A DNA stretch of 64,000 nucleotides. Source: Phyllobates terribilis. Taxonomy: Eukaryota. Positions within the stretch are counted from its first letter, which is position 1. The number at the start of each line of letters is the position of its first letter. The stretch spans positions 179,490,001 to 179,554,000 of the forward strand of contig NW_027362770.1 in assembly GCF_046119375.1 (NCBI RefSeq), written 5' to 3'. Below, in pieces: positions 31,060 through 39,875 of this stretch. The notes under the pieces were generated by a model, which did not search any database, was not told the origin of the DNA, and saw only the letters and a list, made by a program, of their open reading frames with translations. The position numbers were made by a program, and so were the translations under genes.

Positions 31060-31512
31060 CGAACCATCCAAATTTTGTACCGTCCCCTCTTTGTAATTCC
31101 CCTACTAAAATAAAATAAGAATACAAAGAGAGAGAGAGCGCAAAGACCAATAGAGTTTCACCTGTAGACATAGGAATGAATAATAAAAAGGTGGTGCTCA
31201 CCTGGTTTGGTTGTGTAAGGACACAACCACCATAACGTATAAAAAGCAGCTGCAGCGGACCTCCAATGGGTGTCCCACAGGACCAGAATAAATCCAAAGG
31301 CGGTGAAAGTAGAGATATACGTCCGCGTCGCTGAAAGATCCTCAAGTCAGGAACATGTAATAATATCCTTGTTTATATCTGTTGGTGCCCTGATGAAGGG
31401 GTGTGGAACACCCAGAAACGCGTAGGCATTTACCAATAAACAAGGATATTATTACATGTTCCTGACTTGAGGATCTTTCAGCGGCGCGGACGTATATCTC
31501 TACTTTCACAGC
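31060..31512. mobile_element. Penelope-like pseudo-LTR remnant in inverted arrangement
   Basis: 74-bp inverted arms (31303-31376 and 31436-31509, one mismatch) enclosing a hammerhead motif followed by AATAAA. Confidence 0.6.
31384..31430 (+). ncRNA. Type I minimal hammerhead ribozyme motif (Penelope-associated type)
   Basis: Stem I GGTGCC/GGCATT; core CTGATGA; stem II GGGTG-tggaa-CACCC; GAAA-CGCG-TA cleavage site. Confidence 0.65.
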
Positions 31513-31912
31513 CTTTGAAAATAAAATAAGACTCAGACACCATACTCTTTGGGAAATTCTGGCCACAGCAGCCTTTTTTTAAACAAAATTACATAGATAA
31601 ATCCAAATTAACATTCAATGGTGGGAGGGTCCTTGAAGCTCCAAAGATCTGGTGATTAACATAAAACCAACAATTAAAACCAACTTGCCCCCAGCCTTTA
31701 CCCCACTGGCTCGAGAGCACCATAACCCAAAAGGGTTCCATTAATTACTTCCACTTCCCAGGCTCCGACATTCCCTGCCGTGAGACCCCCAAAACCAGAT
31801 CAGCAACCAACGTTTACCAATTAAGGAATCCATACCCTAATGGACCCCCCATACCAATTTAAATCCAACTTCAAGGACCCCCAACCGCCACAACGAGGGC
31901 ACTTTGAATATC

Positions 31913-32485
31913 TCAAATGCCCGAGACCCCCCCCGAACGAAAAGCTATGGCCCTCTCGATGCCCTCTTGTAGCCCCAAAGCACACATGTCAATGCCCACA
32001 GCATTTAAATGTACGCCATCAGCCAACCAAAATTCACCCTCTCCTTTCTCCAAATCAAAATGCCGCACAGCAATCCCCCCATTCCTAGTAACAAAACTAG
32101 AGACTGCTCTATTAACTTTAATCCTGGCCTTATTGATTTTCTCAACTGACCTAGCCCTACGCCAACATCTCCGAGGGACAATCTCCGACCAAACAATAAA
32201 CAAACCTGGAAATGCCAACCACAATCGCAACAAATCATGTTTAACATCCCTTATCAACTCTCTGAAAGGGCGCAAACCCAGGTCGTTCCCACTCACGTGT
32301 AAAACCAAAACGTCAGGTGACCTATCTAAACGCACAATGTGATGTACCTCCTGCAGCACTCCACCTGATCACCGCCGTTTCTCTGTCAAAACCGAGCTGC
32401 CTTCCTGCAGGCCTTATATCCACCCTCAGTGCTCCCCAGTGCACGTAGTAGTGTCCCAGAATCCAAACCAACACGGAATTGGAAC
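31913..32485 (-). pseudogene. SGNH/GDSL-type hydrolase ORF of the Ngaro element
   Basis: Block I VWILGHYYVHW (Ser replaced by Tyr), block III HVSGNDL, block V DGVHL; one internal frameshift near 32340-32360. Confidence 0.8.
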
Positions 32486-32580
32486 CTGCAGAATAAACAC
32501 AAACAAACTTGAAAAACACTTGCCATAAACCACCAACAGCCATAAAATCCAACATTAAAGAGGCAGTTTACCTGCCTGAG

Positions 32581-33430
32581 CCGAGAATTGGATGTTTCGC
32601 CACCAGCAGTTTGCCCCAAGCAGTTCGCCCCCAGCAATTCGCCCCCGGGTACAATTCACCCCAGCACATTTCGTCCCCAGCATTTGGCTCCCAGGATGTT
32701 TTTCCCCTGCACATTTCACCCCCGCACATATCGCCCCCAGTTCGCGACCGGATGTTTCGCCCCCAGCAGTTCGCCCCCGGAGGTTTCATGTAGGGTGAGG
32801 CCTACTGATTCCAACTATGCCTCACTTGTTTAGTTGCAGTCTGATTCTCTGCTCAGCTTCAAAGTAGAAGTCCTGCCTTTGAGATACAGTGGTCTGCCAT
32901 ATTCATAAGCAGAGTGGTAACCTTGTCCACAACCATGATTTGCAGGTATCCAGCCATTGTCAATTACAGCCAGAGGACAAGGTTGTCGCATCAAACCCGC
33001 ATCACTAGATATCAATTTTAGTGTAGAATTTTCTGCTATAAAATAGCTGCAGATTGTCTGCTGCAACTACTTAGTGCATGTGAATGTACCTTAAGGATTC
33101 ATTAACATGTCTCCTAACCTCTGTGGATTATCCACAACTGTAGATACACAGCTATTCTGGTGTAGATAATTCTACACCAAAATCTCCATTTAGCTCTATG
33201 GATTTAGGTGCAGGTTTTAGTGCAGAATTTTAGCCCCGTGTCTGAATGGCTGGAATCTTCTAAACGTCCGGGGGCGAAACGTCCGGGGGCAAAACGTGCG
33301 GCTGCGAATCTTCCTGGGGGCGAAATGATAGGGGCGAAATGTGCAGGGGCGAAATGTACCTGGGGGCGAACTGCTGGGGGCAAACTGCTGGGGGCAAACT
33401 GCTGGGGGCGAATCTTCCTATAACCCCCGA
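32581..33430. mobile_element. 850-bp foldback-like insertion with inverted arrays of TTCGCCCCC / GGGGGCGAA, superfamily unassigned
   Basis: GCCTGAG at 32574-32580 and 33431-33437. Removing the insert restores YIRPQAG of the Ngaro recombinase. Confidence 0.75.
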
Positions 33431-33447
33431 GCCTGAGGTCGGATATA

Positions 33448-35086
33448 CAGTTATATGAAAAAGTTTGGGCACCCCTATTAATCTTAAGCTCAATGATTTA
33501 TAAAAATTGGTGTTTTTGCAACAGCTATTTCAGTTTGATATATGTAATAACTGTTGGACACAGTAATGTTTCTGCCTTGAAATGAGGTTTATTGTACTAA
33601 CAGAAAATGTGCAATCTGCATTCAAACAAAATTTGACAGGTGCATAAGTATGGGCACCCTTATCATTTTCTTGTATTAAATACTCCTACCTACTTTTTAC
33701 TGACTTACTAAAGCATTTTTTTTTGTTTTGTAACCTCATTGAGCTTTGAACTTCATAGCCAGGTGTATGCAATCATGAGAAAAGCTACTTAAAGTGGCCA
33801 CTTGCAAGTTGTTCTCCTGTTTGAAGAGTGGCATCATGGGCTCCTCAAAACAACTGTCAAATGATCTGAAAACAAAGATTATTCAACATAATTGTTCAGG
33901 GGAAGGATAAAAAAAGCTGTCTCAGAGATTTAACCTGTCAGTTTCCACTGTGAGGAACATAGTAAGGAAATGGAAGAACACAGGGACAGTTCTTGTTAAG
34001 GCCAGAAGTGGCAGGCCAAGAAAAACATCAGAAAGGCAGAGAAGAAGAATGGTGAGATCAGTCAAGGACAATCCTCAGACCACCTCCAGAGAGCTGCAGC
34101 ATCAACATGCTGTAGATGGTGTCAATGTGCATCGGTCAACTATACAACGCACTTTGCACAAGGAGAACCTGTATGGGAGAGTGATGCGAAAGAAGCTGTT
34201 TCTGCAAGCACGCCACAAACAGAGTCGGCTGAGGTATGCAAAAGCACATTTGGAGAAGCCAATTTCTTTTTGGAAGAAGGTCCTGTGGACTGATGAAACC
34301 AAGATTGAGTTGTTTGGTCATACAAAAAGGTGTTATGCATGGCGGCAAAAAAACACAGCATTCCAAGAAAAACACTTGCTACCCACAGTAAAATTTGGTG
34401 GAGGTTCCATCATGCTTTGGGGCTGTGTGGCCAATGCCGGCACCGGGAATTTTGCTAAAGTTGAGGGACGCATGGATTCCACTCAGTATCAGCAGATTCT
34501 TGACAATAATGTTCAAGAATCAGTGATAAAGTTGAAGTTACGCAGGGGATGGATCTTTCAGCGAGACAATGATCCAAAACACTGCTCCAAATCTACTCAG
34601 GCATTCATGCAGAGGAACAATTACAATGTTCTGGAATGGCCATCCCAGTCCCCAGACCTGAATATCATTGAACATCTGTGGGATCATTTGAAGAGTGCTG
34701 TCCATGCTCGGCGACCATCAAACTTAACTGAATTGGAATTGTTTTGTAAAGAGGAATGGTCAAAAATACCTTCATCCAGGATCCAGGAACTCATTAAAAG
34801 CTACAGGAAGCGACTAGAGGCTGTTATTTTTGCAAAAGGAGGATCTACTAAATATTAATGTCACTTTTCTGGTGAGGTGCCCATACTTATGCACCTGACA
34901 AATTTTGTTTGAATGCAGATTGCACATTTTCTGTTAGTACAATAAACCTCATTTCAAGGCAGAAACATTACTGTGTCCAACAGTTATTACATATATCAAA
35001 CTGAAATAGCTGTTGCAAAAACACCAATTTTTATAAAACATTAAGCTTAAGATTAATAGGGGTGCCCAAACTTTTTCATATAACTG
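33448..35086 (+). mobile_element. Full-length Tc1 element, 1639 bp, IR/DR type
   Basis: About 210-bp near-perfect TIRs starting CAGTTATATGAAAAAGTTTGGGCACCCC; internal GGGCACC direct repeats; TA TSD. Confidence 0.97.
33836..34858 (+). pseudogene. Tc1 DD34E transposase, 340 codons, with one nonsense codon
   Basis: ATG at 33836 (MGSSKQLSNDLK). TAA at codon 25 (33908-33910) where GEGYKK is expected. TDETK, DNDPKH and SPDLNIIE are intact, with 34 residues between D and E. Confidence 0.93.
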
Positions 35087-35088
35087 TA

Positions 35089-36021
35089 ACTCCGATAACG
35101 TCTCGACTCCCAATGCGCTGAATAGTCTCCCTATTAAGACCACCCTCAGCTGCTCCAATCCGAAACGAGTGTGACCCAAAACAGGATGAATCTAACCCCA
35201 ATGACTTTAAACACTTCCTGAACACTGCTATAAACTGGTATCTGGACAAGAAAGACCCGTCCTTGTGACACAATAATGGATCTCCCGGCTTTGGTTCAGA
35301 CTCCCTGAACAGCTGCAAGCATCTTAACGGACACATAAATGAATTCCTAACTGCTCCCCAAACTATGTGTCTTTTTTTTCCTACCTGATCCGTTTTGGAT
35401 TTCCAGGTCCAAAATTCCACACCTCTGGAGGTGCCCACCACATCTGCTGACAAAAGACCCCCACCCACTGATCTACTATGTGATACAATCTCACCCACCC
35501 TCAAAGCTCCAAAGAAGGCCAAGGAAAAGGCCAATCTAAAAAGACAAGTTTCAAACTCAGAGCAACACACAGAAGGTAAACACCCCCCCTATAATTTCCA
35601 AAATGCCAAATGAAACGGGCCTCCTAAAGTCCTCCTGCCCCTTCCCCCTCCGAAACCCCTTCAATGCCTGTTTTATCAGAAAACTTTTTGTTAAATCTCT
35701 CTGACCATGTAACTTAAAGCCAAAGGCCATAGCTGCAATAGTCCAGGAGATTTTTGCTACTGACCAATCCCCCGCAGCCCCTTGACTTATCCATGACAAT
35801 AATACTCCTAACTGATCATCCTCCAGAGCCGTAAGTCCAACTGTATTAAGCAAGCGGTCTTCCCATAATTGCCAGATAGATTTATACGCTTCCCAATTTC
35901 CCACCGCCAACGATGACCTAATCAGCGACTCAGCGGCCCGTATACCACCTTCCAAAGCTCCGGAGGGCAATCCAGCCCCTTGTCTGCCGCCTCTGGTGCC
36001 AACCGCCGGAAGCGCTCCCAT
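35089..36021 (-). pseudogene. Tyrosine recombinase of the Ngaro element, frameshifted; its C-terminal tip lies at 33438-33447 and 32572-32580
   Basis: FFGALRVGE (Arg) and FGSHSFRIGAA (HxxR) motifs; manual translation gives IQRIG..ESRRYRS|YIRP across the Tc1. Confidence 0.88.
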
Positions 36022-37349
36022 TGCAAACGATAAAGTGAGTCAGCAATGGCATTCTGGACTCCCGGTACATGAGACACTGTCACATAAGCATTCATGGAAA
36101 GGCAAGTCAGCACTAACTGGCGGAGGACCCTAATCACCGGAGGCGACAATGCTGTAATGTTATTAATTGCACACACGACCCCTATGTTGTCGCAGTTAAA
36201 CCGCACCCTCTTATTCTGAAGTTCCCCCCTCCACAAATATACTGCAACCAAAATGGGAAAAATCTCTAATAGGGCTATGTTTTTTACCAATCCTGATGCT
36301 ACCCAATCTTCAGGCCAACCGGATGCGCACCATTGACCTCTGAAGTACGCCCCAAAACCTGAACTTCCTGCAGAATCTGTGTACAACTCCAAAGTACAAT
36401 TGTCCTGTACTTCCTCCATGAGCAATGAACATCCATTATATTGCTCCAGAAATTTTTTCCACACTACCAAATCATCTCTGTGTTCCGCCGACAAACGAAC
36501 GTAATGATGTGGCGATTCCACCCCCGCCGTAGCGCTGGCTAACCGCCGAGAAAAAATTCTCCCCATGGGAATAATGCGGCTTGCAAAATTAAGTTTCCCA
36601 AGAAGAGACTGTATTTCCCTCAAAGTCATTTTTTTTAACTTCCTAGCGCGCGTCACCTCCTTTTTCAAAGCCGACTCTTTCTCCTCTGGCAGCCTAAATT
36701 CCCAATTAACTGAATCAATTACAATTCCTAAAAAACAAATAGTTGTAGTTGTACCTTCAGTTTTTTCTGAAGCCAAAGGCTCTCCGAAATGACCTGCTAC
36801 CCACTGAATCGCCCTCAACAGAATTTCACAACATGTAGAGTCGCCCGAACCAATGCACAAAAAATCATCCAGATAATGGATGATAGATTCAAGACCGGTC
36901 ACGTCCTGGACGACCAATTCCAGAAATGAACTGAAAGCCTCAAACAAAGAACAAGACAGAGAACAGCCCATGGGCAAACACCTATCCACAAAAAACTCAC
37001 CTCCCCAGTAACAACCCAACAACCTAACACTTTCAGGATGAACAGGCAACAACCGAAACGCTGATTTCACATCCGTCTTAGCCAGCAATGCGCCTTTACC
37101 ACACTGTCTAACCCACCGTGCTGCCTCATCGAATGATGTATAAACCACGGAACACAGTTCCGGATCAATCCCGTCATTAACTGAACTTCCCCGCGGATAA
37201 GAAAGATGGTGAATAAGCATGAACTTATTAGGCTCCTTTTTGGGCACTACCCCCAATGGAGATACTACCGAATTTGAAAAAGGAGGATCGGCAAAAGGCC
37301 CAGCCATACGCCCCAAAGCCACCTCTTTTTGTAACTTCACAGAAACCAC
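35922..37349 (-). pseudogene. DIRS/Ngaro reverse transcriptase-RNase H
   Basis: SPLGVVPKKEP, KTDVKSAFRLLPVHP, CLPMGCS, HYLDDFL and YTDSAGSSGFG motifs. Confidence 0.9.
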
Positions 37350-37381
37350 CTCCGCCTACTGATCTGCTGATCTAAGATTTT

Positions 37382-39389
37382 TCAGCACCCGGATGGAGGT
37401 GGAGGAATTTTAAAACCATCAGCAAAACCTGATAATAACACTGCAGCTTTTTCCCTATCAGGAAACCTATTTAGATATAAGGGTGCATCGTGGTTAGGTT
37501 CACCGGTGTCTCCCCCTTGAGAATTGTTGGCCCCTGACTTGGCTTTCTTTTTGAAACACCTGGCAGCGCCATGTGATGAGCCATTGCAGTGCGAGCAAAG
37601 ATGCTTAAACCTGCAGTTGGCCCCAAATTTACACTGGCTGTCGTTGAACTGCCAATATAAACTCGGTTTTTGAGTTCCTGACTGCCCGGATGTGCCTCCA
37701 CTCCCCTGCGTACTAGATTGACCAGCAGAATGGCCGACAAAACCGGCCCCTCCGTGAAAGGAATGCCCTAGTCTAGAAGGAGCCATCACCCATAACCAAA
37801 GGCCAATGTCCTTCTGATCCCACCCTATGGCAGGACGAATAGCTTTCCTCTGACGAAACTGCTCGTCATACCGAAGTCATGTCTGTCCCCCGTAAGTCCT
37901 ATGGGCCTCCCCAATAGCGTCCATATAGCAAAACAAGGGAGAGCAATTCTCCAGTGCTTTCTCACCTATCACGCTCGCCAAGATGACGAATGCCTGCAGC
38001 CAATTAGTAAAAGTCTGCAGGATTAAACGCCACCTTTTCTTTTCTTCGTCCTCCTTCCTACTATCAACCTTTTTACTTCTATCCAGGTTAAATTTCACCA
38101 GAGGCAGAAGAGAAAAAATTTCTACGTATTCATCTTTCCAAATTTTTCCCTCACCTCTTTCTTAAGGTGTGCCCCTAACGGACCTTCAAAACACACATAA
38201 ACCTCCACGTGAGCCCTATCGTCCAAATTAATTCTACACTCCTTTTCTTTCTCTGTCTGCACCGACACCGAAATGGGCTCGGGCAATTGACTCTCGCCCC
38301 CAAGTCTATTACCCACACTGCTCAGCCCGCCCAATTGCGGGCTCATCCATGCAGCTAAATGGCCCGAAGCGGCACTACTACCCCTTTCCAGACGCGACAA
38401 TAACTCCCTCACATTTGCTAATACTTCACTCACCCCTACGCCAACCACCCCCATCTGTCACTGACTTGTACCCCCAGCCACCGACCCCGGATTAACACTT
38501 AAGCCTGGGGATAGAAAATTCTGGGGTAACGAACAAGACATAGAACACAACTAACCAGGCTGTGGAGGAACTGTGGCCCCCCCAGCCGACATTCCTGAAT
38601 CCAGCCGTCCGTCCCGTCTTCCGATTCTTCCCGATTTCCCGATGAATCCTCCGCCTCTTGTGGCCCGAACACCGCTGATGCAATGGATCACGCCGACGCA
38701 GCCCTGTAAGGCCGAAAGTCACTGGCATGCACTGATGTTGAAAAAGGACCAGAGGGCTGTGTATGTGAGGACACATCATTATCACCCAGCCCCTTGCCCG
38801 CTCTGACCCCTGCCTGTAAGGTCTGTGTGCTAGTGGCCTGCGTGTCTGGTCCTGAATTTAAAGCAGCCCACGGACTGCCTATGAGGGCCAGTAATAACAC
38901 TTGCCTGTTATCACCACTCGATTGCTGCCCATCCTGGATGATCCTGCTGTCTTCTGTGTCTGAGGAGGCGGGCCGCCCGACAGGAGCATTGCCGTGGCGA
39001 CCCCCCATGACTTCACTGGTACCATCGGCCCTGAGGCGTGTAGACTCCGCCCCTGATACGGGCTGCGGCCTACTAACCGCCGCATGACACGTGCCGGCGG
39101 GGGCGGATTCCTCCCAGACCGGGGTCTGCTGCTGCGCTTCCAGCCTGGCACCCAGCCTGGAGGGTCCCAGGAGGGGGTTCTGCGCCTGCGCAGTGTCTGG
39201 GGAGCCAGGTCGGGCGACAGCCTATCAGGAGGCCGCGCCCGACGGGAACGCCGCTCCGGCCATGCTGTCACAGGCACCGTCCCCGCTCCCCCTCCGATGA
39301 TCGCCGCTACATGCTTCTCAAGCTATCCCGCATGGGTGTGACTCTGCAGCCGTCCTCAGGGTTTCCAAGAGCTGTGCTGGTCCGCCATA
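37382..39389 (-). pseudogene. Ngaro gag-like ORF, fragmented
   Basis: EVYVCFEGPLGAHL, QTFTNWLQAFVILASVIGEK and a C-terminal Cys/His cluster (CKFGANCRFKHLCSHCNGSSHG). Confidence 0.75.
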
Positions 39390-39843
39390 AGGTATTCATA
39401 GGACGGTATGGGGGAGACAAAACACTACCCCTGTGAGCAGGAATCTATATAATGAACCCCCTTAGTACATGCCGCAATGTAGGCACGCGTTTTGAGATGG
39501 TAGGCATGCCCCCAACCCTGGTAAGACAGGCTCCAGGGATATGTGAAGCAACTCTGAGATGTGTTGCATTCCACCTCGGCGCTTACGTTCCACGGGCCGG
39601 ATATACGTCACAGGGAAACCGGAAGTGACCCGTAATATCGGCCGTGAGTGCATGTGCAGTAGGAGACTCTGCGCTCCAGCGTGCGTGTTAGGAAGCAGAC
39701 ACAAGCACGATGGTAGAGCGCAATACCGGAGGGACACGGGCACCGGAAATACACATCACATGGCAGGTCTGGCGGTCAGCATATAAAGTGTATGCAATCT
39801 ACTAACAGTCAGACATTTCTTGAAGATAGCATAAGGCTCTAAA

Positions 39844-39875
39844 CTCCCCTGAAGAATAAGGAAACGCGTCGGGAG
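39844..39875 (+). ncRNA. Minimal type I hammerhead ribozyme motif within a probable Penelope pseudo-LTR (about 39480-39900)
   Basis: CTCCC-CTGAAGA-ATAAG-GAAA-CGC-GTC-GGGAG: perfect 5-bp stem I, intact core, GUC cleavage triplet, palindromic ACGCGT. ATATAAAG lies about 60 bp upstream. Confidence 0.75.

Follow-up and report, generated by a model that had tools for sequence, protein, structure and literature searches.

The SGNH hydrolase exon at the 3' end of a decayed Ngaro-type retrotransposon in Phyllobates terribilis probably receives the 5' leader of ORF1 by splicing, with the tyrosine recombinase (YR) likely spliced to the same leader; an 86-nt GT-AG stretch at the end of the recombinase frame is at most a minor splice. 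Splice sites, their phases, their conservation among relatives and junctions that recur in gene models point to spliced messages that would join the leader to the hydrolase, to YR and perhaps to gag. The element lies in the window, the 64,000-nucleotide stretch of DNA that we analyzed (contig NW_027362770.1). An initial sequence-only reading had proposed that removal of the 86 nt fuses the recombinase to the hydrolase.

Organization of the element

The element is dead and lies on the minus strand; two insertions interrupt YR, and several frames are broken. In minus-strand order it encodes the leader, a gag core with a CCCH finger, reverse transcriptase (RT)/RNase H, YR and the SGNH hydrolase. 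Its features, with homologues designated P and sequencing contigs X, are as follows.

38556..39388, minus strand: 5' leader of ORF1, putative shared first coding exon, with ATG at 39388; interrupted in the window copy by a stop and by frameshifts (tblastn; alignment A1)
38550..38555, minus strand: leader donor CTG/GTTAGT, phase 1, after ...GGATVPPQP; register fits the junctions of P0291, P0115, P0134 and P0142
38505..38524, minus strand: uncertain candidate acceptor of the gag core, phase 1; P0149 residues 304-424 match 38451-38134
37382..38504, minus strand: disrupted gag-like core carrying a CCCH zinc finger (ORFs, Pfam, homologue matching)
35922..37379, minus strand: RT/RNase H ORF (Pfam RVT_1, 2e-09; P0149 matches 37379-35946)
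36021..36040, minus strand: recombinase acceptor position within the RNase H end motif; CAA here, CAG in relatives examined
35087..36020, minus strand: main part of YR, broken (Pfam Phage_integrase weak, 0.012; 91 YR homologues)
33448..35086, plus strand: Tc1/mariner insertion at TA, with inverted repeats of about 210 bp; absent from contig X4-26
32583..33428, strand undefined: non-coding insertion of 846 bp that resembles a DNA transposon, has subterminal repeats and is flanked by a 5-bp duplication, GAGCC
32555..32582, minus strand: recombinase tail and stop, containing donor CAG/GTAAAC at 32571
32553..32557, minus strand: TAATG, in which the YR stop overlaps an in-frame hydrolase ATG
32486..32505, minus strand: phase-1 splice acceptor of the hydrolase, located seven codons 5' of the block I tryptophan; the P0291 alignment starts at 32486 and that of contig X1-2 ends there
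31913..32485, minus strand: SGNH/GDSL hydrolase exon, with a frameshift near 32360 and Tyr at the catalytic Ser position (Pfam Lipase_GDSL_2)
31520..31912, minus strand: 3' non-coding tail; matching ends at 31520 in two family contigs (records 17 and 25)

The order of a gag-like ORF, RT/RNase H and YR is Ngaro-like, and a methyltransferase domain is absent after RNase H (the RT ORF runs up to the beginning of YR, and Pfam finds RT families only). Self-comparison of the window gave no split direct repeats (A1...B1-A2-B2) of the kind known from Ngaro; the window copy is degraded, and at 31517 its 3' end adjoins a palindromic element. Xenopus Ngaro is described, in the available part of PMC9210276, with four overlapping ORFs: those of gag, RT/RH and YR, and one after YR for an SGNH protein whose function is unproven. 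The window element has the same arrangement, including the SGNH ORF 3' of YR that the same text gives as a trait of amphibian-type Ngaro. The window element thus likely belongs to the Ngaro-like retrotransposons, and its homologues come mostly from frogs. That some animal Ngaro elements carry a hydrolase ORF, as the initial reading had stated, agrees with both this source and the homologues. The catalytic set is Ser, Gly, Asn and Asp-x-x-His: S, G and DGVH are invariant among the relatives and N is present in seven of eight rows (alignment A2), and block I reads GHY in the window copy versus GHS in relatives.

The palindrome adjoining the 3' end is 223 bp long (31295-31517). The two flanks of the element (31295-31517 and near 39870) share a short ACGCGTTTC...CTTCA motif, which may be of the kind found at the ends of Penelope-like elements.

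The Tc1 insertion is flanked by TA on both sides, as had been claimed. The second insertion, previously given as 850 bp with a GCCTGAG duplication, is 846 bp (32583-33428) with a duplication of GAGCC, as revealed by the flanks together with the 15 joining letters of a family contig (run X4, record 26). This contig lacks both insertions, joins 35087 to 32579 and carries the 86 nt unspliced. With a duplication of 5 bp and not 7, the true empty site exceeds the earlier reconstruction by two codons, in an unchanged reading frame. The Tc1 insertion retains an open 315-codon transposase frame (33911-34858, plus strand) and inverted repeats that match at 98%, and it is by far the deepest-covered part in all four sequencing runs described below.

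Splice sites at the hydrolase

The 86 nt at minus-strand 32571-32486 begin with GTAAAC, contain a T-rich tract and end with CTGCAG, with phase 1 at both ends. The donor, the T-rich tract, the CAG acceptor and the matching phase are therefore all present as first described, and the stretch has the features of a U2-type intron (GT donor, pyrimidine tract, YAG acceptor). We scored the element without its insertions (5,210 nt) using approximate splice matrices; on this scale the hydrolase acceptor at 32486 ranks first of 387 AGs and the YR-end donor at 32571 sixth of 370 GTs. Such phase-1 donors are expected at about 0.04 per 33-nt tail, a post hoc figure, and to that extent the donor speaks for a recombinase-hydrolase fusion.

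The initial reading had overlooked that the hydrolase frame stays open throughout the 86 nt and possesses an ATG within the TAATG at 32557-32553.

The leader exon

The leader comprises a short helical N-terminus, an Arg-rich R-x-R-P-P-x-R-L-S-P motif and a low-complexity linker. By tblastn, the leaders of three homologues (P0139, P0291 and P0395) match window positions 39298-38933. The unspliced leader frame reaches a stop two codons past the donor at 38555, which lies about 3.6 kb upstream of the hydrolase acceptor when the insertions are removed. Counting against leader splicing, this donor ranks only 18th of 370 with the same approximate matrices. Splicing from it to the candidate acceptor of the gag core would remove only 51 nt in the window copy, which makes that intron doubtful. 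In the predicted structure of homologue P0005, helices at residues 8-22 and 24-35 are confident and precede a linker modelled as disordered, after which the chain adopts an SGNH fold. The leader gave no usable match in the ESM Atlas.

Joining from 38555 to 32486 in phase 1 would yield a predicted leader-esterase protein. The leader is likely also spliced in phase 1 onto YR, whose acceptor would be concealed within the end motif of RNase H, and it may be spliced onto the gag core as well. In some families a short mini-exon from the 5' end of YR would come between leader and esterase.

Gene models of relatives

The protein evidence consists of gene models whose read support is not displayed. RefSeq isoforms rest on RNA-seq. 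Among 23 long hydrolase homologues, 15 are leader-SGNH proteins (two of them via a short 5' piece of YR), 2 join the leader to zinc fingers and SGNH, and in the remaining 6 SGNH follows fragments of RT, gag or YR; none of the 23 contains a complete YR. The 15 leader-SGNH assignments were made by reading the sequences and cover six frog species in five genera. An automatic rule applied to the best 150 of 3,535 representatives placed 63 in the class with a low-complexity leader, the largest, 33 with another N-terminus, 30 as stand-alone, 10 with part of YR, 10 with the YR end and 4 with RT. None of the 20 YR-containing representatives among these best 150 combines the catalytic Tyr with block I, and their join points are scattered.

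On the recombinase side, we found 91 YR homologues of at least 299 aa, 88 with a complete C-terminus. The stop falls within 8 residues of Y-x-R in 75 of these and within 25 in another 12; a single one (P0087) runs into SGNH. In 52 of the 88, G, R, S and C are absent from the first seven tail residues, which is incompatible with a phase-1 GT there. Both counts argue against fusion at the YR end as the main splice product.

In five frog families one leader continues into either YR or SGNH. Two Bufo families have leader-YR and leader-SGNH isoforms of one locus (LOC122926745 X1/X2 and LOC121003196 X1/X3), and YR and SGNH models share a leader also in Rhinoderma, Ranitomeya variabilis (P0024/P0395 versus P0291) and Hyperolius (P0079/P0367). 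The family closest to the window element is modelled as leader-YR and leader-SGNH, which again counts against the fusion. In 12 of the 15 leader-YR models in which the join to YR could be located (17 examined), the residue 33 positions ahead of the first YR helix motif is Val, in register with window position 36020.

Fusion at the YR end nevertheless finds some support. In one Leptodactylus cluster of GenBank models, seven of nine have a full YR with catalytic Tyr joined to SGNH, and a merged whole-element model from Mytilus (P0199) contains a YR-SGNH join too. As a minor or lineage-specific isoform, a YR-SGNH (or leader-YR-SGNH) protein is therefore a possibility that we consider unlikely but worth keeping in view.

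Many gene models attach random YR or RT fragments to the hydrolase acceptor. This is what would be expected if the splice sites were cryptic and the element made no use of the fused proteins, which would then be artefacts of gene prediction or by-products of splicing by the host; against this, the identical leader junction recurs in several species and families.

Two candidate exceptions were rejected: an extra exon of P0007 and P0016 that might have been a gag piece is the 5' end of YR, and P0003, considered as a YR-end fusion, lacks the YR C-terminus. The RT models that we inspected either gave no information or had been merged with gag.

Several models are of interest in their own right. 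In a Lithobates pipiens cluster (P0148), RT/RNase H is joined to SGNH via a donor near the 5' end of YR; the junction is identical in the seven models examined of nine members and may represent a further isoform. P0018 and P0019 from Aquarana catesbeiana combine the leader, repeated CCCH zinc-finger units and SGNH, and may be derived or domesticated. A possible domesticated gene family is formed by very long proteins in which Ngaro-type SGNH domains are repeated in tandem two to six times (P0253, P0254-P0257, P0266, P0299, P0346 and P0363); P0253 belongs to a multi-isoform gene of the gecko Sphaerodactylus townsendi (LOC125439779).

Conservation in distant elements

The distant set of animal-type YR elements comprised one element from a metagenome scan (L001) and contigs L037-L050, with YR identities of 28-58% among the nine compared. 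Among 36 metagenome loci, L001 was a clear relative (E 1e-24) and the other 35 were weak (E 5e-6 or worse). For most tests, seven of the 17 loci on genome contigs (L043, L045, L047-L049 and L051-L052) gave partial data or none that could be used. Scans of viral contigs found no relatives.

In all nine loci where the RNase H end motif was found (L001, L037-L042, L044 and L046), its codons read TCN-CGN-..-CAG and place the AG in phase 1 of YR; the motif was not found in L045. The codons avoid AG before ending in CAG, for which the background product over eight loci is 5e-6, a figure that is overstated because the loci are related. The loci are likewise not independent, because their common phase is partly inherited. 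The YR ORFs of L001, L037, L038 and L046 have their first Met only at residues 112-167. Both the motif coding and these late Met residues speak against cryptic splice sites.

Four distant animal elements have SGNH after YR, and each has a phase-1 YAG within a few codons before block I, although the acceptor of L001 scores low (-1.8). The YR-end donor behaves differently. A phase-1 donor scoring above -3.4 was found in the YR tail of none of eight distant elements, so that the four with SGNH retain the hydrolase acceptor without a usable YR-end donor. At the other end, the top leader donor is in phase 1 in 7 of 10 loci versus a background of 44% (P = 0.09), a result that is weak by itself. L001 also has several weak candidate phase-1 acceptors for RT.

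These elements also bear on the hydrolase ATG. A conserved ATG and promoter of the hydrolase's own had been named beforehand as evidence against splicing. The ATG is present in the window but is not conserved: a stop-start overlap between YR and the hydrolase occurs in none of the four distant elements and L001 has no in-frame ATG before block I. The 25 stand-alone hydrolase models show no common start either: their N-terminal extensions range from 1 to 64 residues, and several resemble translated pyrimidine tracts.

A divergent SGNH ORF with its own ATG lies about 0.6-0.9 kb before gag in L040 (284-910 and 7421-8047) and L041 (559-1230); L040 is a near-perfect tandem repeat with a period of 7137. 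Contigs L037-L050 place eukaryote-type YR retrotransposons inside bacterial and archaeal genome bins, probably through contamination from host animals.

Contigs from sequencing runs

Contigs from four runs of one study, presumed to be RNA, were aligned to window positions 31200-39800. Neither the joint from 38555 to 32485 nor the YR-end joint occurs among the joints listed (15 of 18), which is also what cryptic splice sites would predict. Contig X1-2 (run X1, record 2) aligns over 32219-32486 and continues for 48 further letters. Splicing from the leader donor would end the alignment at 32486 and splicing from the YR-end donor at 32489, so this contig fits the former and not the latter. It is only one contig, however, and would fit equally with any other upstream exon that ends alike.

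Discussion

We favor a shared leader exon as the source of the 5' end of the hydrolase message. That the hydrolase acceptor is used while the genomic copy retains the intron, a part of the initial reading, is supported by these data, with a different donor. The RNA that is copied as the genome would be the full-length, unspliced one, which would account for the introns in genomic copies, by analogy with the splicing of retroviral env. L040 and L041, whose hydrolase has its own ATG and a different arrangement, count against leader splicing.

The alternatives fare less well. That the 86-nt stretch is the main splice, giving a recombinase-esterase fusion, seems improbable to us: its well-ranked donor and the Leptodactylus and Mytilus models are outweighed by the unfused YR homologues and the donorless distant tails. 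We also give little credence to purely cryptic sites, for which the random attachments in gene models are set against the recurring leader junction and the RNase H codons. Least probable is translation of the hydrolase as a separate ORF4 from unspliced RNA by termination-reinitiation at TAATG, which has in its favor the open frame into block I, the four overlapping ORFs assigned to Xenopus Ngaro (PMC9210276, available part) and the UAAUG stop-start coupling of SART1 described in the accessible text of PMC3894237, the same pentanucleotide that links the YR stop and hydrolase ATG here, but which is disfavored by its lack of conservation in the four distant elements and by the scattered starts of the stand-alone models and leaves the top-ranked acceptor unexplained.

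Introns have been mentioned for fungal elements, and prior notice of Ngaro splicing is possible. Splicing of Ngaro ORFs was not described in the literature that we searched, which did not extend to Goodwin & Poulter 2004 and Poulter & Butler 2015. A term search of the main text of PMC9210276, as far as available, gave no occurrence of 'splic' or 'intron', and the accessible portions of PMC6681497, PMC9341512, PMC13465315, PMC7192593, PMC3783388, PMC5408684, PMC8547959, PMC4157794 and PMC3894237 do not describe Ngaro ORF splicing. Whereas the ORFs of Xenopus Ngaro are presented as overlapping in the available part of PMC9210276, those of the window element are likely reached by splicing from the shared leader.

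Two other systems offer comparisons. The best solved relative of the hydrolase by sequence is the esterase of ZfL2-1 ORF1p (PDB 4c1b, E 1e-7). According to the available text of PMC3905857, ZfL2-1 ORF1p unites in one chain an SGNH esterase, whose activity and lipid binding were measured, with a coiled coil and an Arg-rich motif. The predicted leader-esterase is similar in having a helical N-terminus, an Arg-rich stretch and an SGNH esterase, the last predicted from sequence. In contrast, ZfL2-1 ORF1p is the contiguous first ORF of a non-LTR LINE, and the N-terminus of the Ngaro protein is modelled as a short two-helix unit. By analogy, the leader-esterase may have a role like that of ZfL2-1 ORF1p and may tie the ribonucleoprotein of the element to membranes. 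In LTR elements, ORF3/env is typically expressed from spliced messages, and ORF3 of bdelloid Vesta is a GDSL protein (PMC5408684, as far as accessible). Like the window element, they carry an accessory ORF at the 3' end, which in some cases encodes a GDSL esterase; those elements, however, are integrase-encoding LTR elements, whereas here a long coding leader is likely shared and YR is likely spliced too.

A broader reading, which we place slightly on the probable side of even, is that Ngaro elements from frogs to molluscs and other invertebrates follow a splicing programme like that of complex retroviruses, in which gag, YR and esterase each receive, in phase 1, the same basic first exon capped by helices. 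As parts of this one joint reading, the shared leader would tag gag, recombinase and esterase for one particle, the YR acceptor would be written in the RNase H codons, the leader-esterase would be a membrane adaptor like LINE ORF1p, and some frog lineages would add a YR-esterase fusion via a short terminal intron like that of the window.

If leader splicing holds, YR and the esterase would gain a long, mostly disordered basic N-terminus of about 150-400 residues in the models, and many 'uncharacterized' frog gene models would be explained as transposon isoforms. Leader splicing supplies exact, testable junctions and would make the esterase product resemble LINE ORF1p. It would thus bear on how the overlapping, often ATG-less downstream ORFs of YR retrotransposons are expressed, and on the purpose of the Ngaro hydrolase.
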